Positions 3,278 through 59,534 of a stretch of 64,000 nucleotides of DNA are shown here, piece after piece. The stretch is from an uncultured Spirochaetota bacterium (GTDB lineage Bacteria > Spirochaetota > UBA4802 > UBA5550). The stretch is taken from contig OW818666.1 of the NCBI GenBank assembly GCA_942493035.1, positions 3,936,813-4,000,812 on the forward strand, in the 5' to 3' direction. A program made the position numbers and the translations under genes. Each line of letters begins with the position of its first letter. Positions within the stretch are counted from its first letter, which is position 1. The notes beneath the pieces were generated by a model. The model saw only the letters and a program-made list of their open reading frames with translations, had not been told where the DNA came from and did no database searches.

Positions 3278-3965
3278 AATTACTCTCCAGATAAATTAAA
3301 GTTTTTTTCTCAGCATAAACTATTACATCTGACATAATTTTTTTTGCTGATTTTGCATCACCGGCTATTATAGCTTTTGAAATTTCAGTATGGAATTTTG
3401 TTGTAACTTTTATATTCTCATCGATTGTGAAGTAGAGCTGGCCGAAATCCTTGAATATATCGTTAAAAAAATTGAGAATGAATATGTAGAGTATATTATT
3501 CCCTGCTCTTGCGATCATCTGATGAATAGATATGTCCTTTTCAATCAAAGATTTTTTCGAAGTAAGTATTTGCTGGAAAGATCCGATGTCTGAATCAGTT
3601 CTGTTAAGTGCCGCTTTTTCTGCCATTTCGGGAGAAATTATTCTGCGAAGTTCCAGAATGTCTTTAAAGACATCAGCGGTTTTGTCTTTCTTCAGATATA
3701 GAATATGTTTTAAAAGTTCAAGGTTTCCTGAATCCCTATAGTCTTTTATATATATTCCATCCCCCTGACGGACAGAGAGAAGACCAAGAGATTCCAGTTT
3801 CCTCAATGCTTCACGGAGTGTGTGACGGTTTACATTCATTTTGTCAGAAACTTCCCTTTCCGGAGGGAGTTTTTCTCCAGGGATAAGAGCTCCTGATATT
3901 ATACGGTTTATAATCTGAGCAGCAACTTCATCACTTAAATTTTTTTTGTTTATTTCAGTAAACAT
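3264..3965 (-). CDS. GntR-family transcriptional regulator (FadR-like, FCD domain)
   Basis: 233 aa; N-terminal winged HTH (EKLPPEREVSDKMNVNRHTLREALRKLESLGLL) plus C-terminal ligand domain; overlaps the downstream G3P dehydrogenase gene by 14 nt. Confidence 0.8.
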   Translation of the reverse strand: MFTEINKKNLSDEVAAQIINRIISGALIPGEKLPPEREVSDKMNVNRHTLREALRKLESLGLLSVRQGDGIYIKDYRDSGNLELLKHILYLKKDKTADVFKDILELRRIISPEMAEKAALNRTDSDIGSFQQILTSKKSLIEKDISIHQMIARAGNNILYIFILNFFNDIFKDFGQLYFTIDENIKVTTKFHTEISKAIIAGDAKSAKKIMSDVIVYAEKKTLIYLESNYDKI

Positions 3966-4434: not shown

Positions 4435-6087
4435 ATGAAATTCAGTGAATTTAATCTTGATGAGAAAATATTAAAAGGTATTGAAGATGCAGGTTTTGTT
4501 AACTGTACGGAAGTGCAGGCGGAGTCTTTAAAGTATACACTTGACGGGAAAGATATCCTTGTTCAATCCCAGACAGGGACCGGGAAAACTGCCGCATTTA
4601 TGATTCCGCTTTATCACCTCCTTTTAACTAATGAAAAGATGAAAAATAAAAAAGTTCTTATTCTGGCTCCAACAAGAGAACTTGTAATACAGATAGAGAA
4701 AGAGGGGAAACTTCTTGGTGCCCATCTTGATATTAAAATTCAGAGCTTCTACGGCGGTGTCGGGTATAATCAGCAGGAAAATGCCATGAAGGAGGGAGTC
4801 GATATTTACGTAGGAACTCCCGGAAGACTAATGGATTTTGCCAGCAGCGGAAAGATCAAATTCGGAGAGTTTGGTATTCTTGTTATAGATGAAGCTGACA
4901 GAATGTTTGATATGGGATTTTTCCCGGATATAAAAAGAATGATGAAACGCATGGTTTCACCATCTGACAGAATCTCTATGCTTTTCAGTGCTACTTTAAG
5001 TTCCAAGGTAAAGAATCTTGCATGGGAATATATGAATGACCCTGTTGAAGTTACTATTTCCGGCGGACAGGTTACGGTTGAAAAAATTAAGCAGGTTCTT
5101 TATCATGTGGGAACCAATGAAAAGATAAGTCTTCTTCTTGGAATTCTTAAGACACAGAATCCTCAAAACGCGCTTGTATTCACAAATACCAAACAGGACG
5201 CAGTAAAAGTCGCCGCAAGACTTGCAGGTAACGGATACGAATGCAGCTATATTATTGGTGACCTTCCACAGAGTAAGCGGTCTAAAATTATTGAAAATAT
5301 TAAATCGGGTAAACTGAAATATCTAGTTGCAACAGATGTTGCTGCAAGAGGACTTCATATTAACGATCTCGATATTGTAATAAACTACGATATTCCCGAA
5401 GATTTTGAAAATTATGTTCACAGAATCGGGCGGACTGCAAGAGCCGGTAAAACCGGTATGGCCGTAACTTTTGCATGTGAGAAATTTGTATATGGACTTG
5501 AGGCTATAGAGTCATATATAAAAATGAAGATTCCCGTAGAGTGGGCCGGGGACGAGATGTTTGCTGAAGATATGAGTAAAGATGAATTTATCAGAAATTA
5601 TATGAGAGAATCAAAGCAGACAAGAATTGTTTCTGAACATGATGATAAAAAGACAGACAAATTCAGCAAAGATAGAAAAGGGAAAGATAGACCTGCTGCT
5701 GGAGCAAGACCTGAGAAGAAAGATTTCCGGAAAGGTCCTGATAAGAGAGAGGATAAAGATTTCAAAACCAAAAAGAATATTACTGAGACAAAACCTAAAG
5801 CTCCATCCGATAAGAAGGTTTATGATAAAAACAGTAATGATAAAAATAACCGTAAAAAAGATACTGTTACCGAAAAAGTAAATGATAGAGCATCTAAAAA
5901 TCTTACTCCTGATAAGAGAATGGATTATTATAAAGAGAAATACGGAGAGGATTTTACTGTTAAAAGAGAGATTACTGCAGATCCTTCGAAAAAAAGTAAA
6001 AAACCGCCGGTTACAGCTGCAGCAAAGACTCCAGAAAAAAGCAGTTCACTTATTAGCAGGATAAAATCTATTTTCAGAAAGAAATAA
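4435..6087 (+). CDS. DEAD-box ATP-dependent RNA helicase with lysine-rich basic C-terminal tail
   Basis: 550 aa; Q-motif/Walker A (SQTGTGKT), DEAD motif (VIDEADRM), SAT, HRIGRTAR; GGAG SD upstream of ATG. Confidence 0.9.
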   Translation: MKFSEFNLDEKILKGIEDAGFVNCTEVQAESLKYTLDGKDILVQSQTGTGKTAAFMIPLYHLLLTNEKMKNKKVLILAPTRELVIQIEKEGKLLGAHLDIKIQSFYGGVGYNQQENAMKEGVDIYVGTPGRLMDFASSGKIKFGEFGILVIDEADRMFDMGFFPDIKRMMKRMVSPSDRISMLFSATLSSKVKNLAWEYMNDPVEVTISGGQVTVEKIKQVLYHVGTNEKISLLLGILKTQNPQNALVFTNTKQDAVKVAARLAGNGYECSYIIGDLPQSKRSKIIENIKSGKLKYLVATDVAARGLHINDLDIVINYDIPEDFENYVHRIGRTARAGKTGMAVTFACEKFVYGLEAIESYIKMKIPVEWAGDEMFAEDMSKDEFIRNYMRESKQTRIVSEHDDKKTDKFSKDRKGKDRPAAGARPEKKDFRKGPDKREDKDFKTKKNITETKPKAPSDKKVYDKNSNDKNNRKKDTVTEKVNDRASKNLTPDKRMDYYKEKYGEDFTVKREITADPSKKSKKPPVTAAAKTPEKSSSLISRIKSIFRKK

Positions 6088-19904: not shown

Positions 19905-21509
19905 TTAAAGTTCGTCTATTATCATGGATAACATTTCTTTTGCATCGTTGATATCATCCTGAAGTCTTTTAATCGATTCAAGTCTGTTTTCAGATTTAGC
20001 TTTATTATACTTTTCTGTGAGTATTTTTAAAGAGTTAGTAAGAGCTTCAATCTGGCTGTCAACAGGTGAGAATCTTTCGGTCGTTTCAGATCCGTATGCT
20101 GCAAATTCTGAATGCATTGTTTCAAGATCAACAATCTCTCCCCATCTCGGTACATATGCAGTTAAACCAAACTCGCTGCTTACAAGTTTGCCGAAAAATT
20201 CCGCCGATTCCTCTTCGCCATGTACAACAAAAACCTTTGTTTTGGGATTCTTATTGGTACTGAGCCATTTTAGCAGTGCATCCTTATCCGCATGAGCAGA
20301 AAATCCCCCAAGTGTATGAATCTGAGCATTTACAGCAATATCCTCTCCATAAATCTTTACCTGTTTAGCTCCATCAATGATTCTTCTACCAAGTGTACCT
20401 TCAGCCTGATAACCTACAAAAACTACACTGGATTCTTTTTTGTATAAATTGTTCTGAAGATGGTATTGTATTCGTCCTGCGGTACACATTCCGCTGGCTG
20501 AGATGATTATAGCTCCCTTTGCTTCAGTAAGGAGTTTTGATTCTTCAGATGTTTTCGTAAATTTTAAATTCGGAAAATCAAGGGGATTATCTCCCGACAT
20601 AAGAATTTTAATCATCTCATCATCAAAGCACTGCTTGTTTTCTCTGAAAATTTCTGTAGCAGAAATCGCCAGGGGTGAATCGATAAAAACCGGGATGCGT
20701 GGAAGCTCTCCGCTTTTAAAAAGCCTGTTAAGAGTAAAAATTATCTCCTGAGTCCTCTCTATTGCAAAAGCTGGGATTATAATATTTCCTTTTTGATTTA
20801 TAGAACTCAAAAGGATGTTTTTAAATTCCTCGTATGTATCCTCTCTGTTTTTATGGAGTCTGTCACCATAAGTGGATTCAATAAGAATTATATCAGCATC
20901 TTCAAGCAGCTCAGGATCTCTGATTATTGACTGATCCCTGGTGCCTATATCTCCGGAAAAGACGACTTTTGTTTTTTTTCCTTTTTCATCAATCCACATT
21001 TCAATAAATGCAGAACCGAGGATATGTCCTGCATCACGGAACCGGACCTCAACTCTTGGATGTATCTGTACTATTTCGCCATAATTAACAGGAACGAAAT
21101 GGCTTAGTGAATTTTCAGCATCTTCAGGAGTATAGAGAGGTTCAACTTCAGGACGGCCGAGTTTCTTGTTCCGCTTGTTTATCCATTTTGTATCCATCTC
21201 CTGTATGTGGGCACTGTCCGGCAGCATTACCGAGCATAAATCAGCGGTGGCTTTTGTTGCATATATGTTCCCGAAAAACCCCTCCTTTACCAGCTTAGGG
21301 ATTAATCCGCTGTGATCTATGTGAGCATGAGTAAGAAGCATGCAGTCAATTTTTTGAGGAGCGTATATCAGATGAAGCTGATTCCTTTGAACAAGTTCCT
21401 GTTTTCCCTGAAACATTCCACAATCTATCATTATTGTAAAGTCATCATCTTTGATAATATATGAAGATCCAGTGACTGTTCTTGCACCACCAACGAATTC
21501 AATTTTCAT
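19905..21509 (-). CDS. MBL-fold beta-CASP ribonuclease (TTHA0252/RNase J-like)
   Basis: Metallo-beta-lactamase motif LLTHAHIDHSG; N-terminus MKIEFVGGARTVTGSSYII; C-terminal coiled-coil extension; ATG at 21509 with GAGGTG SD. Confidence 0.8.
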   Translation of the reverse strand: MKIEFVGGARTVTGSSYIIKDDDFTIMIDCGMFQGKQELVQRNQLHLIYAPQKIDCMLLTHAHIDHSGLIPKLVKEGFFGNIYATKATADLCSVMLPDSAHIQEMDTKWINKRNKKLGRPEVEPLYTPEDAENSLSHFVPVNYGEIVQIHPRVEVRFRDAGHILGSAFIEMWIDEKGKKTKVVFSGDIGTRDQSIIRDPELLEDADIILIESTYGDRLHKNREDTYEEFKNILLSSINQKGNIIIPAFAIERTQEIIFTLNRLFKSGELPRIPVFIDSPLAISATEIFRENKQCFDDEMIKILMSGDNPLDFPNLKFTKTSEESKLLTEAKGAIIISASGMCTAGRIQYHLQNNLYKKESSVVFVGYQAEGTLGRRIIDGAKQVKIYGEDIAVNAQIHTLGGFSAHADKDALLKWLSTNKNPKTKVFVVHGEEESAEFFGKLVSSEFGLTAYVPRWGEIVDLETMHSEFAAYGSETTERFSPVDSQIEALTNSLKILTEKYNKAKSENRLESIKRLQDDINDAKEMLSMIIDEL

Positions 21510-21824
21510 AAATAAACACCTCAAGTAAATTTTGTCTAATTTTGCATAGTTAATTCTAAGTTCAAATATAATTCTTTTTTGTTACTTCGGATAGCACAAA
21601 AAATGCATATATAAAAAAGAGATTTCTTTTTTAGAGCCAGAGGTTTCCGGTTTTCAATTATACTACAGTATTTTCAAAGGTCATTCTTCAGGTTTTGTTT
21701 TAATATTGAAAGAGTATGAACCTCTTCCCGGGAGAATCTGAGGGTAAAACGGCTAAATTCAATTATTAACTGTTATAGTAGAGAATAGATCTGATTTAGG
21801 TAAAATGAAATTGCTGTTTCAGAT

Positions 21825-25449: not shown

Positions 25450-25660
25450 CCCCGGCGGGCTTGGGAGAGCCGGCCGGGTTTCCCTTTTGGGAGAAAAATA
25501 GAGTTCTTTGAAAACGATATTATAGCGAGCATGAGGCCCCGCAGGGGCATAACGGAGGGGCGAAGTAAGGGCGAAAAATCTTTCGCCCTTACTTCGCCCA
25601 TACTTCTTCGCCAACACAACCCGCCCACAGGCGAGGCCGCATGGTCGCTGTAATGAAGGC
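25450..25660 (+). other. GC-rich structured intergenic element between the flaB genes, with a 19-bp perfect hairpin (25558-25599)
   Basis: GGGCGAAGTAAGGGCGAAA-AATC-TTTCGCCCTTACTTCGCCC plus smaller stems; GC content far above the local background. Confidence 0.4.
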
Positions 25661-51079: not shown

Positions 51080-51364
51080 CTAAAGCAGTGCATCGTATCT
51101 TTTTTTTATCGGATTAAGGAGATACTCAAGGCCATAAATTTTTATTTCATAGAGTGTAGATAAAAGCATTCCAAGTCTCCCTGAAGGGAAACCGTTTTCA
51201 TGATACCATACAACATAATGTTCAGGGAGATTGCACAACGTCACACCTTTGTATTTTCCGTATGGCATCTCTGTAGTTACCAGATCAAACAGTACAGTTG
51301 GATCCATCATCTCATTCATACTCTTTTCATTATTTTCCATCAGAGACAGCGCCTTTTGTTTCAT
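51080..51364 (-). CDS. DUF3820-like small protein
   Basis: Conserved MPYGKYKG...LP..Y..W core; start ambiguous (51364, 51340 or 51319) and overlaps the upstream tgt-fusion gene. Confidence 0.5.
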   Translation of the reverse strand: MKQKALSLMENNEKSMNEMMDPTVLFDLVTTEMPYGKYKGVTLCNLPEHYVVWYHENGFPSGRLGMLLSTLYEIKIYGLEYLLNPIKKRYDALL

Positions 51365-53381
51365 GAAACTGAGGGTGATTTAAAATGAGTTTTTCAATCC
51401 GATCCTGTTCATCTTTAGAGATGTATTCATCGAACTTTGCGCTGCTCCTTTTGAATCGTTCAAGCCACTCAGTTCCAAGGAGTTTTATGTCGGAGTTTTT
51501 AATTTCCAGTGATGTGAATGCAGCAGTGGTATCGTTTTTAGGACCTGTTCCCTTTCCTGATCCGGTATAAAAACCTGCAGCAAGAAGTGATCCTCTTACC
51601 ATGGTGGAGCTTGAATATGTAAAGAGTTTAGCAGGTCTGTTTATGCAGTGATTGTATATACGTTTAAATACAGAATAATTCCAGAGAGTTCCATTTGTAT
51701 TCAAAGAGAACGGATCGAAGAAAATGCAGTGCGGCTGATGAGATTTTTCAATATGATCAAGAAAATCCCCCTCAACAAGATTCCATTCAATATTAAACTT
51801 ATCAGATCTCCATGACCCTTTGTTAAGAATTGAAGCAGGAGCTGAGTGCCGCACATGATGAAAAAGTGACGGATTTTTTACTGTAAGGAGGAATGAGTCG
51901 AGATCATTTTCAAAGCTTACTATGCGCACCACTTTCTGAAAATTATTTTCAGAATATAGTTTTTCACATTCCAGTATTGCAGCCATTGCATTAGTCGCTG
52001 AACCCATCCCCACATCCCAGATAACAAGTTCGTCATCGGTAATTGAATTGAGCATCACTTCCAGCTCTGACTGGTCAACGTAAAGAGTTTTTGCTTCAGT
52101 TAAAGGTTCAATAACAGAATGCATTATCTCCCCCGATTTTATATGACGAATGCTGTGAAATCCCGCATCCTGTTTTACAATCTGGTAGTCTCCAAGTGCA
52201 GGTAGCTCTGACTTTTTTTTGCGAATAGGGTGAGTTACCGGATGTTCATCGTCATCCCGTACTAACAGTTCTTTCTGTTCGGAGTAGTAAGATGCAAAGG
52301 TTCCTTTTAGAATATGATTCCGCATTGAATTCATAAGATTGCGGTAAAAAGTGAGATTATGTATTCCAATGAGATTGCCGCCATAGTACTCCTGAGTCTT
52401 AGTCAGGTGATGGAGATAGGCGCGGCTGTATCTGCTGCATGCCGGGCAGGAACAGTTTTCGTCAAGGGGTCTGTCCTGGAATTTATAGATCCCTCTGCGC
52501 AGCTCCATTCTTCCATGGGATGTATATGCAACTCCCTGCTGTGCCATTGCAGTCGGGAGGATGCAGTCGAACATATCGACACCACGGTGAACTCCCTCTA
52601 AAAGGTCTATTGGAGTTCCCACACCCATGAGATATCTCGGATAGTCGCGCGGGAGGAGTGATGCGGTAAACTCAGTCATGTCCTTTCTTTCATCTTCAGA
52701 TTCACCAACTGCAAGCCCGCCGATTGCAAATCCGTCAAAGGGGAGGGATGTAATCTGTCCTGCGCTCATTTTCCGGAGTTCCGGGAAACATGCACCCTGT
52801 ACAATTCCGAAAATAGATTGAGCTGAATCTCCCCTTGCTGCTATACTTCTCTCTGCCCATCTTGCTGTAATATCGGCTGCCTCTCTGCAGAGAGACTCTT
52901 CTGATGTGGACGGAATACACTGATCCATTGCCATCATTATATCGCTGTTAATTAATTTCTGTGTTCCGATACTTGTTTCCGGACTTAAAAGAATTTTTCT
53001 GCCATCGTGATAACTTCTGAAGACGGCACCATCTTCAGTTACTTTAACATCTTTTGAAAGTGAAAATACCTGAAAGCCTCCTGAGTCAGTAAGTACAGAT
53101 CTCTTCCAGTTCATGAACTGATGTATCCCTCCGAACTTCCGGAAAACATCAGTCCCGGGGCGGAGCAGCAGATGATATGTATTTGCCAGTAGAACAGGAA
53201 ACCCCAAATCCTCAACGGCAGTAGTATCCTGTGAACGGAGTACAGCAAGGGTCGCTACGGGCATAAATACAGGTGTCTGTACGGTATTGTGCAGTGTAGT
53301 GAAAGTGGATGCACGTGCAGCTGAATTTTCCGCTTCAGCTTCAACGGTGAAACCAAGGCGATGTATATTTTTTAAGTTCAT
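51330..53381 (-). CDS. tgt: Queuine tRNA-ribosyltransferase (Tgt) fused to a C-terminal MnmC2-like (DUF752) methyltransferase-like domain
   Basis: 683 aa. Residues 1-370 match Tgt (LTDSGGFQVFSL, Zn site CSCPACSRYSRAYLHHL); residues 440-650 resemble the MnmC methyltransferase domain (VIWDVGMGSATN, FFDPFSLNTNGTLWN, FTYSSSTMVRGSLLAAGF). Confidence 0.8.
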   Translation of the reverse strand: MNLKNIHRLGFTVEAEAENSAARASTFTTLHNTVQTPVFMPVATLAVLRSQDTTAVEDLGFPVLLANTYHLLLRPGTDVFRKFGGIHQFMNWKRSVLTDSGGFQVFSLSKDVKVTEDGAVFRSYHDGRKILLSPETSIGTQKLINSDIMMAMDQCIPSTSEESLCREAADITARWAERSIAARGDSAQSIFGIVQGACFPELRKMSAGQITSLPFDGFAIGGLAVGESEDERKDMTEFTASLLPRDYPRYLMGVGTPIDLLEGVHRGVDMFDCILPTAMAQQGVAYTSHGRMELRRGIYKFQDRPLDENCSCPACSRYSRAYLHHLTKTQEYYGGNLIGIHNLTFYRNLMNSMRNHILKGTFASYYSEQKELLVRDDDEHPVTHPIRKKKSELPALGDYQIVKQDAGFHSIRHIKSGEIMHSVIEPLTEAKTLYVDQSELEVMLNSITDDELVIWDVGMGSATNAMAAILECEKLYSENNFQKVVRIVSFENDLDSFLLTVKNPSLFHHVRHSAPASILNKGSWRSDKFNIEWNLVEGDFLDHIEKSHQPHCIFFDPFSLNTNGTLWNYSVFKRIYNHCINRPAKLFTYSSSTMVRGSLLAAGFYTGSGKGTGPKNDTTAAFTSLEIKNSDIKLLGTEWLERFKRSSAKFDEYISKDEQDRIEKLILNHPQFHETKGAVSDGK

Positions 53382-53451: not shown

Positions 53452-53910
53452 ATGAGGGATTTTTTTATCGGGGAGAGGATATTATTAATTGAGCGAATGA
53501 TCCTTTCCGTTGGGGTGAATGATTATTCGCCCGTACGAGGTTGAGAGAAATTTTATAAAGGGGATATTTTTAGGAGTGGGATTTTTTTATCGGGGGAGAG
53601 GGGATTTTTAATTGAGCGAATGATCCTTTCCGTTGGGGCGAATGATTATTCGCCAGTACGAGGTTGAGAGAAATTTTATAAAGGGGATATTTTTAGGAGT
53701 GGGATTTTTTTATCGGGGAGAGGGGATTTTTTAATTGAGCGAATGATCCTATCCGTTGGGGCGAATGATTATTCGCCCGTACGAGGTTGAGAGAAATTTT
53801 ATAAAGGGGATATTTTTAGGAGTGGGATTTTTTTATTGGGGAGAGGATATTTTTAATTGAGCGAATGATCCTATCCGTTGGGGCGAATGATTATTCGCCC
53901 GTACGTGATT
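53452..53910 (+). repeat. Tandem array of four ~122-bp units, each with REP hairpin GGGCGAATGATTATTCGCCC
   Basis: Near-identical units beginning AGTGGGATTTTTTTATCGGGGAGAGG...; each holds GAGCGAATGATCC plus the palindromic GGGCGAAT-GATT-ATTCGCCC followed by GTACG. Confidence 0.85.
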
Positions 53911-54013
53911 GGGAGAATAATATTTATAAAATATTTTTTATTAAGGGAATTTTTTAAAAATTTCTCTGCTGCTATCGTATTCATATGTAAGAAATATTAT
54001 TAAGGAATTTAAA

Positions 54014-54565
54014 ATGTCATATAATCCGGTTTTTCATCATAGGCGATCTATTCGTTTAAAGAGATTTGATTATTCTTCTTCGGGTGCATATTTTGTTACT
54101 TTATGTGTAAAAAATAGAACAAAAATTTTTGGCTATATTGTCGGTGGTAAAATGATTTTAAATGCTGCCGGTATAGCAGCTCAGTTATGCTGGCAGGAGA
54201 TACCTTTACATTATCCCTTTGTTTCTCTGGATGTATTTGTTATTATGCCCGATCATATTCATGGGATAATTTTGATTAAGGAATCGGATTTGAGGTGGGG
54301 AAAGGATACTGATGTCGTGGAGAATGATTATTCGCCTGTACGTGAAAATGATAATTTGTTTCATAATAAGCGGCCGCGCGGTACTTCAAAAACAATCGGA
54401 TCGGTTGTTCGCGGATATAAGATAGGTGTAACAAAATGGTTCCGTAAGCATACACTTGTCGAGTCTGTCTGGCAGCGAGATTATTATGAGAATATTATAA
54501 GAAATTATGATGATTTAAATCGAATTCGTAGGTATATTATAAATAATCCGCAGAAGTGGAGATAG
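54014..54565 (+). CDS. REP-associated tyrosine transposase (RAYT; IS200/IS605-like HUH Y1 transposase)
   Basis: 183 aa; N-terminal GAYFVTLCVKNR, HUH motif PDHIHGII, C-terminal WQRDYYENIIR...YIINNPQKW, all resembling E. coli RayT/YafM; flanked on both sides by REP copies. Confidence 0.8.
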   Translation: MSYNPVFHHRRSIRLKRFDYSSSGAYFVTLCVKNRTKIFGYIVGGKMILNAAGIAAQLCWQEIPLHYPFVSLDVFVIMPDHIHGIILIKESDLRWGKDTDVVENDYSPVRENDNLFHNKRPRGTSKTIGSVVRGYKIGVTKWFRKHTLVESVWQRDYYENIIRNYDDLNRIRRYIINNPQKWR

Positions 54566-54595
54566 ATTTGTTTTTAATTCAGGATGTGCGAATAA

Positions 54596-54675
54596 TCTTT
54601 TTTTTCGGGAGAATTATATCTTGATTTGAGAGAATGATATTATCTGTCGGGGCGAATGATTATTCGCCCGTACGG
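54596..54675 (+). repeat. REP unit downstream of the RAYT gene
   Basis: TTGATTTGAGAGAATGATATTATCTGTCGGGGCGAATGATTATTCGCCCGTACGG, same unit as the upstream array. Confidence 0.75.
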
Positions 54676-54715
54676 ATATAGATTGAATTATAAGTATTTA
54701 GTGGAGAAAATAAAA

Positions 54716-55078
54716 ATGAAAATTATTTCGCAGGTCTTAATCGGATTAATAGCATTTCAGCATCTGTATATTCTATGGATCGAGATGTTTGTATGGACTA
54801 CAGTGGGGAGGAAAGTGTTCAGAGGTTTTCCAAAAGAATTTTTTCATACAACAAAGGCTATGGCTGCCAATCAGGGTTTATACAACGGATTTCTTGCTGC
54901 AGGATTAATATGGTCGCTTCTGATATCAGATAGAATCTGGAGTTTTCAGGTTTCACTTTTTTTTCTGGCGTGTGTAGTTACAGCGGGTGTTTTCGGAGCT
55001 TTTACAGCGGATAAGAAGATATTTTTTGTTCAGGCTCTCCCTGCTTTAATTGCAATGGCTGTTTTATTTCTGGCTTAG
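54716..55078 (+). CDS. Small membrane protein, DUF1304-like
   Basis: About 120 aa from ATG 54716 (GGAGAAAA SD); the track ORF start at 54656 lies inside the REP hairpin and is rejected; 3-4 TM helices, NQGLYNGFLAAGL motif. Confidence 0.5.
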   Translation: MKIISQVLIGLIAFQHLYILWIEMFVWTTVGRKVFRGFPKEFFHTTKAMAANQGLYNGFLAAGLIWSLLISDRIWSFQVSLFFLACVVTAGVFGAFTADKKIFFVQALPALIAMAVLFLA

Positions 55079-55085
55079 ATTTATT

Positions 55086-55106
55086 GGGGCGAATGATTCA
55101 TCGCCC
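55086..55106. repeat. REP variant hairpin, terminator-like between convergent genes
   Basis: GGGGCGAATGATTCATCGCCC. Confidence 0.6.
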
Positions 55107-55112
55107 TTACTT

Positions 55113-58437: not shown

Positions 58438-59196
58438 TTATTGAGTCAGTTTTCTTATTATATCGTCGGCACACTTTTTTCCGGACAGAAGCATCCCTCC
58501 GAAGATGGGACCCATACGCGGTGAACCGAAGTATCCGCATGCAGCCATTCCTGTTACGTATAAGCCGGGATAAATTTCTCTGGTATTTTCTACAGTCATC
58601 AATTCACCCATATCTGAATTCATTGGAGCTTCACCTTTGGGCGGATCAATAATCCCGCGTTTTGCAAGCATTGAAACTATTGCAGAGGGGTGGCCCGTTG
58701 AATCTACAACAATATCCGATGAAATCATAAGCGGATCAACATGAAGACCCGTTGCTCTTACCGGTGACCAGTTTATAACAACTCCGCTCATTGCGCCATT
58801 TTTGACTGATACATCTTCCACTTCAACAGTATTAAAAATGGTCAGACCTGCATCGACAGCATGTGCAGTTAACTTTGCTGCCATTTCCACTGAATCGAGA
58901 GAATAATAATCGCCGGGATGTTCGGTAAGGTGCAGAGAGAATTCTCTTGCTATCGGTATACTCTCCTTCTGCAGTATAACCCTGTTCATCATCATACCGC
59001 CGCCCCATACTCCGCCACCTATAGAAAGCTTGCTTTCGAAGAGTGCAGTTTTAATACCGGCGTGTGAAAGGTAGTATCCAAGGACAACTCCCGACGGACC
59101 TCCTCCGACTATTACAACCTGATTTCTCAGGTGTGCCAACAGCTTTGCTGAAAATGTTTCGATTACCAGTTGAGAAATTATTGATTCATCAAGCAT
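58438..59196 (-). CDS. thi4: Thi4-family thiazole synthase
   Basis: 252 aa; VVIVGGGPSGVVLGYYL dinucleotide fold and SIGGGVWGGGMMMN; GGAGG SD; TPP riboswitch upstream. Confidence 0.85.
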   Translation of the reverse strand: MLDESIISQLVIETFSAKLLAHLRNQVVIVGGGPSGVVLGYYLSHAGIKTALFESKLSIGGGVWGGGMMMNRVILQKESIPIAREFSLHLTEHPGDYYSLDSVEMAAKLTAHAVDAGLTIFNTVEVEDVSVKNGAMSGVVINWSPVRATGLHVDPLMISSDIVVDSTGHPSAIVSMLAKRGIIDPPKGEAPMNSDMGELMTVENTREIYPGLYVTGMAACGYFGSPRMGPIFGGMLLSGKKCADDIIRKLTQ

Positions 59197-59224: not shown

Positions 59225-59362
59225 AAAAAAGCCGCGTACGGAGGAACGCGGCATATACATTGATAATCTATAGTTATTGTACTGCCGTTTCCCTCCGCCG
59301 GTATTAACCGGATCAGGTAAAAAGGGTATAATCTCAGCACGCATTTACTGCGGCACCCCTAA
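59225..59362 (-). promoter_or_regulatory. TPP (THI-box) riboswitch with terminator expression platform
   Basis: Minus strand reads UAGGGGUGCCGCAGUAAAUGCGUGCUGAGAUUAUACCCUUUUACCUGAUCCGGUUAAUACCGGCGGAGGGAAACGG, then hairpin GCCGCGUUCCUCCGUACGCGGC plus U-run, then GGAGGAA SD and the thi4 AUG. Confidence 0.9.
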
Positions 59363-59534
59363 CGGTAAAAATTTTATCAAAGAACTGATTTATTAAAAAA
59401 TCTACCGGGCATTGATGTCAATTAATTATTATATTTTTAATCTAATAAAAATATAATAATTTAAAGCGCTGTGAATTTCTATTATAAACAAGCCAGTGTC
59501 GAAAAACCATGATTCTAAAAACTAGCTGATATTA

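Follow-up and report, generated by a model that had tools for sequence, protein, structure and literature searches.

A REP-associated tyrosine transposase with an intragenic REP and a head-to-tail array of 123-bp REP units in a probable spirochete

The window analysed here, a 64-kb stretch of bacterial DNA (contig OW818666.1), contains a gene for a REP-associated tyrosine transposase (RAYT) set among repetitive extragenic palindromic (REP) hairpins, four of which lie upstream of the gene, two downstream and one inside it (Table 1). The upstream copies belong to a tandem array placed in a divergent intergenic region, with a tgt-mnmC-like gene on one side and the RAYT gene on the other. Tandem Repeats Finder (TRF) reports the array at 53456-53917 with a period of 123, 3.8 copies and 95% matches, and a repeat search returned four 123-nt copies at 53460-53950. 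The units are 89-95% identical and arranged head-to-tail; each carries a half-REP left arm (GAGCGAATGAT) along with G-rich and T-run motifs, and ends in a single complete REP hairpin. A preliminary description of this DNA had given four upstream units of ~122 bp, with one further unit and a variant downstream; apart from the period, which is 123 bp by TRF, this layout was recovered in full, the variant being the distal REP past the DUF1304 gene.

Table 1. Features of the RAYT locus; positions are counted from the first letter of the window
Feature	Position	Strand	Remarks
Tandem array u1-u4, four ~123-bp units	53456-53950	+	TRF and repeat search
REP of u1, GTTGGGGTGAATGATTATTCGCCCGTAC	53509-53536	+	One stem mismatch
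REP of u2, GTTGGGGCGAATGATTATTCGCCAGTAC	53632-53659	+	One stem mismatch
REP of u3, GTTGGGGCGAATGATTATTCGCCCGTAC	53755-53782	+	8-bp stem, 4-nt loop, outer CGT/ACG stem
REP of u4	53877-53904	+	Followed by GTGA, as in the intragenic copy
RAYT gene (TnpAREP-like Y1 HUH nuclease)	54014-54565	+	183 aa, subclass 2.4
HUH motif H81-I82-H83 (PDHIHG)	54254-54262	+	From alignment to 4er8
Variable, predicted-disordered loop, residues 93-119	54290-54370	+	pLDDT <50; between the HUH strand and the next helix
Intragenic REP, GTCGTGGAGAATGATTATTCGCCTGTAC	54314-54341	+	In frame, coding VVENDYSPV
W motif W153-Q154	RAYT protein		Aligned with W94-Q95 of E. coli TnpAREP
Catalytic Y174 (RRYIINNP)	54533-54535	+	Aligned with Y115 of TnpAREP
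Metal ligand N178	RAYT protein		Aligned with N119 of TnpAREP
Downstream unit d1	54595-54674	+	80 nt, 78% identical to an array unit
REP of d1, GTCGGGGCGAATGATTATTCGCCCGTAC	54646-54673	+	
DUF1304 gene	54716-55078	+	120 aa; Pfam PF06993, E=3e-40; two direct REPs on its sides
Distal variant REP d2, ATTGGGGCGAATGATTCATCGCCCTTAC, then a T-tract	55083-55110	+	Between the convergent DUF1304 and response-regulator/HD genes

The REP hairpin reads GGGCGAAT-GATT-ATTCGCCC, the palindrome already named in the preliminary description as common to all units. A search with the 18-mer GGCGAATGATTATTCGCC at ≤3 mismatches found seven sites, which, the sequence being a palindrome, amount to 14 matches on the two strands, against 0.05 in shuffled sequence. 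The 20-nt palindrome is exact in u3, u4 and d1, carries one mismatch each in u1 and u2 and two in the distal copy. On the plus strand the element takes the form GT(T/C)G-GGGCGAAT-GATT-ATTCGCCC-GTAC. Judged by the GATT loop and the GTAC tail, the orientation is one and the same in all seven copies. The copies listed in the preliminary description are therefore all present; the seventh, inside the open reading frame (ORF), had been missed. Its picture of a classic RAYT-REP arrangement holds insofar as the RAYT is flanked by its own hairpins, but these are all head-to-tail, and the inverted pairing of REPINs (REP doublets forming hairpins) or BIMEs (bacterial interspersed mosaic elements) was not found at the locus, where only a weak, 77% inverted half-site occurs (54579-54600).

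Folded as single-stranded DNA, the u3 unit gives -11.8 kcal/mol on the plus strand and -11.4 kcal/mol on the minus strand. The GTAC foot, which is 5' on the minus strand, is found in five of the six extragenic copies in the window and also in relatives, the distal copy having GTAA; the opposite foot is variable (GTTG, GTCG, GCTG). Since the GTAC foot is kept while the opposite foot drifts, the minus strand would be the one that carries the recognised foot. The minus-strand foot GTAC and the plus-strand feet GTTG/GTCG each lie one base off GTAG, and none reads GT[AG]G. The GC skew is weakly positive on the plus strand and gives no assignment of the REPs to a replication strand. Only one site in the region, the distal REP together with TACTTTTATT, is terminator-like, and it scores as an intrinsic terminator; this copy has probably been co-opted as a terminator hairpin between the convergent genes. 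A promoter scan gave a count not above the shuffled expectation, and an Rfam search of the whole window placed no RNA family at the RAYT locus.

The protein encoded by the RAYT gene matches the NCBIfam model NF047646 (REP_Tyr_transpos) over residues 20-181 (E=1.8e-14, 53.8 bits). Searched with phmmer against the PDB, it has a sole and weak match, the E. coli TnpAREP structure 4er8 (E=0.21), and a profile built from 40 homologues again retrieved 4er8 alone, at E=1.8e-5. An AlphaFold2 model built on the homologue alignment has a mean predicted local distance difference test score (pLDDT) of 80.2 and a predicted TM-score (pTM) of 0.74. Foldseek ranks 1-30 in the PDB for this model are all Y1 transposases (IS608, ISDra2, IS200, TnpAREP), and 4er8 has both the lowest root-mean-square deviation (2.7 A) and the best query-normalised TM-score (0.58) among the matches. 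These three lines of search bear out the identity proposed in the preliminary description. A total of 3317 database homologues, from many phyla, were found, several of which carry the JGI name 'REP element-mobilizing transposase RayT'; within the 64-kb window the gene is single copy.

The functional residues could be placed by alignment with TnpAREP, in which Y115 is catalytic, N119 is a metal ligand and the W94-Q95 region contacts the 5' tetranucleotide (PMC3479197). The two histidines of the HUH (histidine-hydrophobic-histidine) motif, H81 and H83, pair with H59 and H61 of TnpAREP (H59-M60-H61), in agreement with the motif pointed out in the preliminary description. The sequence WQRDYYENIIR, which had been taken there for the C-terminal tyrosine region, is instead the W motif (W153, Q154), the catalytic tyrosine being Y174 in RRYIINNP. 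The latter forms part of the class 2 tyrosine motif Y---NP, present as Y174-I-I-N-N178-P179. Across the 40 homologues H81 and Y174 are invariant and H83 is conserved in ≥90%; D80 of the window protein is N in ≥90% of homologues at that position. By its sequence and predicted fold, the 183-aa ORF is a RAYT-type Y1 HUH nuclease with catalytic residues apparently intact.

Within this family, TnpAY1 subclass 2.4 is the equivalent of RAYT group 4 of Bertels et al. 2017 (PMC6006769, PMC5581495). The subclass is defined by the motifs NH[IFV]H, WQ and YIxNNP and by a median length of 194 aa; it has an insertion of variable length between beta3 and alphaC and is flanked by long or 'double foot' GT[AG]G REPs (PMC6006769). 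In-frame REPs within the gene are unique to subclass 2.4 (Quentin, Siguier, Chandler and Fichant 2018, PMC6006769). The assignment of the window RAYT to TnpAY1 subclass 2.4, or RAYT group 4, is supported by its WQ and YIINNP motifs, its loop and its in-frame REP. The intragenic REP is a published property of the subclass and not a new one.

Between the intragenic and the downstream REP, 25/28 nt are identical, and the three substitutions all affect stem G:C positions; the intragenic hairpin is weakened to -3.1 kcal/mol. It shares the GTACGTGA tail with unit 4, and the likeness of its 5' flank to that of d1 is marginal (p ~0.02, uncorrected). The possibility that it is a longer copy of a unit was tested and set aside, as secure similarity stops at ~30 nt. 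In relatives with RAYTs 72-77% identical to that of the window, the intragenic REP is older and degenerate with its loop flipped (AATC), and in DNA alignment their cassettes cannot be aligned with the loop cassette of the window. Judged from these alignments, the intragenic cassette has been replaced in the window lineage.

With the variable regions of 120 homologues set side by side, the loop region is hypervariable, with 22-80 aa, and REP-derived peptides occur in it in ~110 of the 124 homologue sequences retrieved. Three types of peptide were distinguished: a GAKNFSP-type in ~70 sequences, a GAN[ND][YH]SP-type in ~32 and a VQNFEP-type in 7. The peptides are often preceded by multiplied left arms, such as (VGAN)n. 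Five unrelated loci contain both a RAYT and a REP hit, and in three of them (L198, L102, L170) the intragenic REP is of the same type as the flanking ones. RAYT identity averages 67.9% within REP types and 65.2% between them, a small but significant difference, reached by 0/2000 permutations, in a test confounded by relatedness.

Left-arm multiplication is seen in the loops of P0044, P0031, P0070, P0033, P0043 and P0009 (e.g. VGANVGANAGANAGANVGANVGANNYSPLR), and close relatives differ in the loop by length steps of 8 aa (24 nt). Left-arm repeats occur outside genes as well, as at 965-1020 of the related locus L123 (GGAGCGAATGTT GGGGCGAATGTT GGGTCGAAAAATAATTCGCCC). One homologue, P0004 (296 aa, on a 1346-bp JGI contig), owes its 108 N-terminal residues to reading through two REP units upstream (VGANDYSPVRDW); its long N-terminus is a gene-calling artefact and not a longer RAYT. 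The window itself contains a distinct REP-like hairpin in an intergenic region at 25548-25603, a very stable nested palindrome (GGGGCGAAGTAAGGGCGAAAAATCTTTCGCCCTTACTTCGCCC) with a GGGCGAAAAATCTTTCGCCC core, GTAAG/CTTAC feet and a 19-bp perfect stem, the outer stem being GCGAGCATGAGGCC / GGCCGCATGGTCGC. The 141 nt around it (25510-25650) fold as DNA with -43.8 kcal/mol (z=-8.7). Its core is a 'GAKNFSP-type' REP, of another family than at the RAYT locus, and it is accompanied by four TTCGCCCnTAC half-sites.

Four related metagenomic loci with RAYTs 72-77% identical to that of the window were compared: L121/L122 (P0002), L123 (P0003) and L124 and L125 (both P0005). The order TGT-MnmC / RAYT / DUF1304 / ... 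/ radical SAM is common to the window, L121 and L122. The shorter contigs L123, L124 and L125 begin in the array and share the downstream genes with the window, except that DUF1304 has been lost in L124. As the neighbours are kept in the relatives, the RAYT has been inherited in place and is not hopping. The closest, syntenic homologue cluster includes a protein of Spirochaetae bacterium HGW-Spirochaetae-5, of the phylum Spirochaetota, and the spirochete host suspected in the preliminary description is thus probable. The TGT-MnmC fusion (51330-53381, minus strand, 683 aa), which joins a queuine tRNA-ribosyltransferase to an MnmC-type S-adenosylmethionine-dependent methyltransferase (Methyltransf_30, PF05430), is conserved in L121 and L122.

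The whole ~120-nt unit, beyond the hairpin alone, is conserved in L121 and L123-L125. The numbers of units upstream and downstream are 2/2 in L121, ≥3/2 in L123 and 4/1 in the window, so that array length does vary between relatives, a variation for which the preliminary description had proposed to look. L124 and L125 encode an identical RAYT and are 99.4-99.7% identical in sequence; what separates them is a single 446-bp indel containing DUF1304, whose two ends fall at equivalent positions of successive direct REPs. After the loss of DUF1304, a single REP is left (L124 925-990 vs L125 933-1435). L124 represents the deletion state, since all other relatives have DUF1304. With regard to this gene in the window, the mechanical ORF of 140 aa takes its start from an ATG within the loop of the REP (MIIRPYG…, the additional part being 54656-54715); the true start is most likely 54716, giving 120 aa as called in the relatives.

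The REP core is not confined to these loci. The 18-mer was scanned against one genome per GTDB species (596 Gb), which returned at least 120 stretches with at least 135 exact matches, where by our own estimate about 17 are expected by chance. Among the matches listed, nearly all read (GTAG)GGGCGAATGATTATTCGCCCCTAC, the double-foot form, and the usual wider form of the shared core is GTAGGGGCGAATGATTATTCGCCCCTAC. By record titles the hosts belong to at least eight phyla (Chloroflexota, Desulfobacterota, Bacteroidota, Planctomycetota, Patescibacteria, Pseudomonadota, Elusimicrobiota and Lentisphaerota), with no spirochete among the 80 titles listed. A RAYT homologue was present in only 2/120 loci among the matches listed (L001-L120), and the exact hairpin is therefore a dispersed repeat elsewhere. 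The 18-nt core also occurs in 33 IMG/VR predicted viral contigs (L233-L265), none of which has a RAYT. In the sequences compared, this REP core is identical across phyla, in contrast to the REPs of Enterobacteria and Pseudomonas, which are lineage-specific.

Tandem arrays of the REP core were likewise found elsewhere (64 bp x 3.6 in L180 and 43 bp x 4.6 in L200; also L025 and L230), and the head-to-tail array is therefore something that this REP forms repeatedly and is not peculiar to the window locus. A metagenome scan with the GTAC-tailed 22-mer gave 107 stretches, mostly from high-GC organisms with GTAGG...CCGTAC variants; none of the 107 came from relatives of the window organism. Locus L127 has a composite repeat with three copies in 5 kb (1520-1640, 3630-3740, 5050-5160), also present on the viral contig L236, in which a second palindrome type has its arms (GTAGGGGCAGACCTGTGTGTCTGCCC ... 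GGGCGGACACACAGGTCCGCCCCTAC) on either side of a GTTG...GTAC REP.

Taken together, the locus is likely to be a chromosomal, vertically inherited, single-copy REPtron, in which a RAYT of subclass 2.4 is accompanied by its cognate REP hairpins. On the model of E. coli TnpAREP and IS608 TnpA (PMC3479197, PMC3333891), the enzyme would attach to DNA that is transiently single-stranded, at the folded hairpin and its 5' foot, and would then cleave and rejoin the DNA beside the REP. If two direct REPs were cut and strand transfer ensued, the stretch lying between them would be deleted or duplicated, which could account for the growth and shrinkage of the array and for the 446-bp loss of DUF1304. The ~123-bp units would in this way have been tandemly amplified, four upstream and one downstream, and the same activity may have overwritten the intragenic cassette with a copy of a flanking REP.

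Several points weigh against this interpretation. The score of 53.8 bits for NF047646 is under the curated equivalog cut-off of 80, and Pfam PF01797 (Y1_Tnp) gives 17.3 bits (E=0.0053) against a gathering threshold of 23; a precomputed Pfam match is absent in most homologues too. Only ~30 nt of the likeness between the intragenic copy and the flanking ones are secure, and further copies of the REP type of the locus were not found in the remaining 62 kb of the window. We know of no activity data for any enzyme of subclass 2.4. In E. coli, cleavage is abolished by changing G4 of GTAG (PMC3479197), whereas the foot in the window is GTAC; recognition must therefore differ, if the window enzyme is active. 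With respect to copy number, flanking 16-mers of group 4 have ~14 occurrences genome-wide (Bertels et al., PMC5581495), so that a low REP copy number in the genome of the window would not be unusual.

Gain and loss of repeats, and deletion between 20-nt direct repeats, can also come about by slippage or homologous recombination without a RAYT. It may be, then, that the RAYT is a passive or inactive relic, the array, its changes in copy number and the DUF1304 deletion being products of replication slippage or unequal homologous recombination, and that the hairpins persist through their use as terminators or mRNA-stabilising structures. Head-to-tail units of 89-95% identity are ideal for slippage, the distal REP with its T-tract does score as an intrinsic terminator between convergent genes, and the emptiness of the other 62 kb of the window with respect to this REP type would fit as well. 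The deletion junction falls in identical REP sequence of 16-20 nt, which suits either mechanism, and enzyme and host mechanism are therefore indistinguishable from the junction. This main alternative, a passive or inactive relic, is nevertheless unlikely in our judgement. The catalytic residues and the protein as a whole are conserved over thousands of homologues and in the four relatives, in different phyla this subclass of RAYT is accompanied by the same REP core, and the intragenic REP varies together with the flanking ones, an association that is hard to explain without a relationship between enzyme and hairpin.

An autonomous insertion sequence of the IS200/IS605 type, moving as a unit with the hairpins as its ends, is very improbable. 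The Y1 transposase fold and the subterminal hairpins on either side of the gene recall such elements, but the flanking genes are common to four relatives at just 72-77% protein identity, the gene is single copy in the window with no tnpB-like ORF there, both 'ends' are multi-copy direct repeats, and the motif is the Y---NP of class 2 RAYTs and not the Y---Q of IS200. Another type of repeat beside an unrelated ORF (a CRISPR-like array, a cluster of structured RNAs or a protein-coding repeat) has next to no likelihood: for all the regular spacing, the palindrome in each unit and the ORF that one gene caller extended N-terminally through the units (P0004), it is the whole 123-nt unit that repeats at 89-95% identity, which leaves no unique spacers, Rfam is empty at the locus, the reading-through ORF is not conserved and the RAYT ORF plainly encodes a Y1 nuclease. 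On structure and synteny, the readings as CRISPR-like, as IS200/IS605 and as REPIN/BIME were all rejected.

A bolder version of the REPtron interpretation, which may be called 'seed and record', is that the in-frame REP is functional rather than a tolerated accident, and that the loop is a read-out of RAYT activity. We regard this as doubtful. As the coding sequence contains the hairpin, a transferred gene would by itself bring along both enzyme and substrate, and such co-transfer would explain how one identical 18-28-nt core came to be shared by at least eight phyla and by viral contigs. Cleavage and rejoining would then repeatedly overwrite and expand the cassette from genomic REP copies, as might be surmised from the cassette replacement, the (VGAN)n multiplications and the way in which intragenic and flanking REPs vary together. 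RAYT activity would, if this were true, have left its footprints in the 123-bp arrays and in the loss of a gene between two REPs.

A standard case of a domesticated transposase that coexists with its non-autonomous repeats is that of RAYTs and REPs. To our knowledge, nearly all experiments on RAYTs have been carried out in gamma-proteobacterial groups. What the present locus adds is modest: a probable spirochete host, a GTAC foot and a regular, length-variable head-to-tail array of 123-bp units on the one hand, and a natural REP-to-REP deletion of a gene and an identical REP core across many phyla and viral contigs on the other. The current picture of RAYT biology is unchanged by it. With its apparently intact catalytic centre, its recently renewed intragenic REP and the gene deletion seen between near-identical strains, the compact and well-preserved locus is convenient for asking whether enzymes of subclass 2.4 are active and in what way they reshape the DNA between direct hairpins.

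Elsewhere in the window, a thiamine pyrophosphate (TPP) riboswitch (Rfam RF00059, 73 bits; 59273-59370, minus strand) lies upstream of a Thi4-like gene (58438-59196) and is the sole Rfam match in the window. A metallo-beta-lactamase/beta-CASP nuclease of 539 aa (19905-21524, minus strand) matches the NCBIfam model 'type VII CRISPR-associated Cas14' with E=3.9e-126 and 422 bits, far under the cut-off of 800, with a further match to aCPSF1; a housekeeping role as an RNase J/CPSF-like enzyme is probable. In NCBIfam searches, the families matched by ten large ORFs of the window (among them pyruvate phosphate dikinase, alanine-tRNA ligase and GMP synthase) all belonged to housekeeping, chemotaxis or signalling, and none points to a particular taxon.

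In comparison with known systems, the window RAYT shares with subclass 2.4 the WQ and YIINNP motifs, a length of about 190 aa, a peripheral variable insertion and the in-frame REP. Its flanking REPs have the G:C-rich stem base of that subclass and a core identical to the widespread double-foot REP, and low gene copy number and a patchy spread across phyla are further common traits. It differs in its HUH motif, which is DHIH and not NH[IFV]H, and in its feet, GTAC and GTTG/GTCG as opposed to GT[AG]G / C[TC]AC. Moreover, its REPs are embedded in conserved ~123-bp units that form a regular head-to-tail array, and its host is probably a member of the Spirochaetota, a phylum absent from the main text of PMC6006769.

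With E. coli TnpAREP, which belongs to subclass 2.2 (4er8; PMC3479197, PMC3333891), the window protein shares the fold, the HUH, Tyr and Asn residues and the W94-Q95 region, and with the E. coli REPtron it has in common a single-copy chromosomal gene that carries its own hairpins on its flanks. The E. coli REPs, in contrast, are bulged, have a GTAG foot and occur in inverted pairs (BIMEs/REPINs) and in hundreds of copies. TnpAREP also has a C-terminal extension (E161), lacking in the window RAYT, and no intragenic REP. The TnpA proteins of the IS200/IS605 family (IS608, ISDra2) likewise have the Y1 HUH fold and act on subterminal hairpins and an adjacent tetranucleotide on single-stranded DNA. 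Their elements are mobile and multi-copy, the left end being distinct from the right, and often include tnpB, whereas the window locus is fixed and its hairpins are repeated and identical. Finally, the head-to-tail GTAG-REP dimers and the REP groups described by Di Nocera et al. 2013 (PMC3733652) resemble the present locus in their tandem REPs and in the occurrence of REPs inside genes; in the window, however, what repeats is a 123-bp composite unit and not the hairpin alone, and it abuts the RAYT gene.

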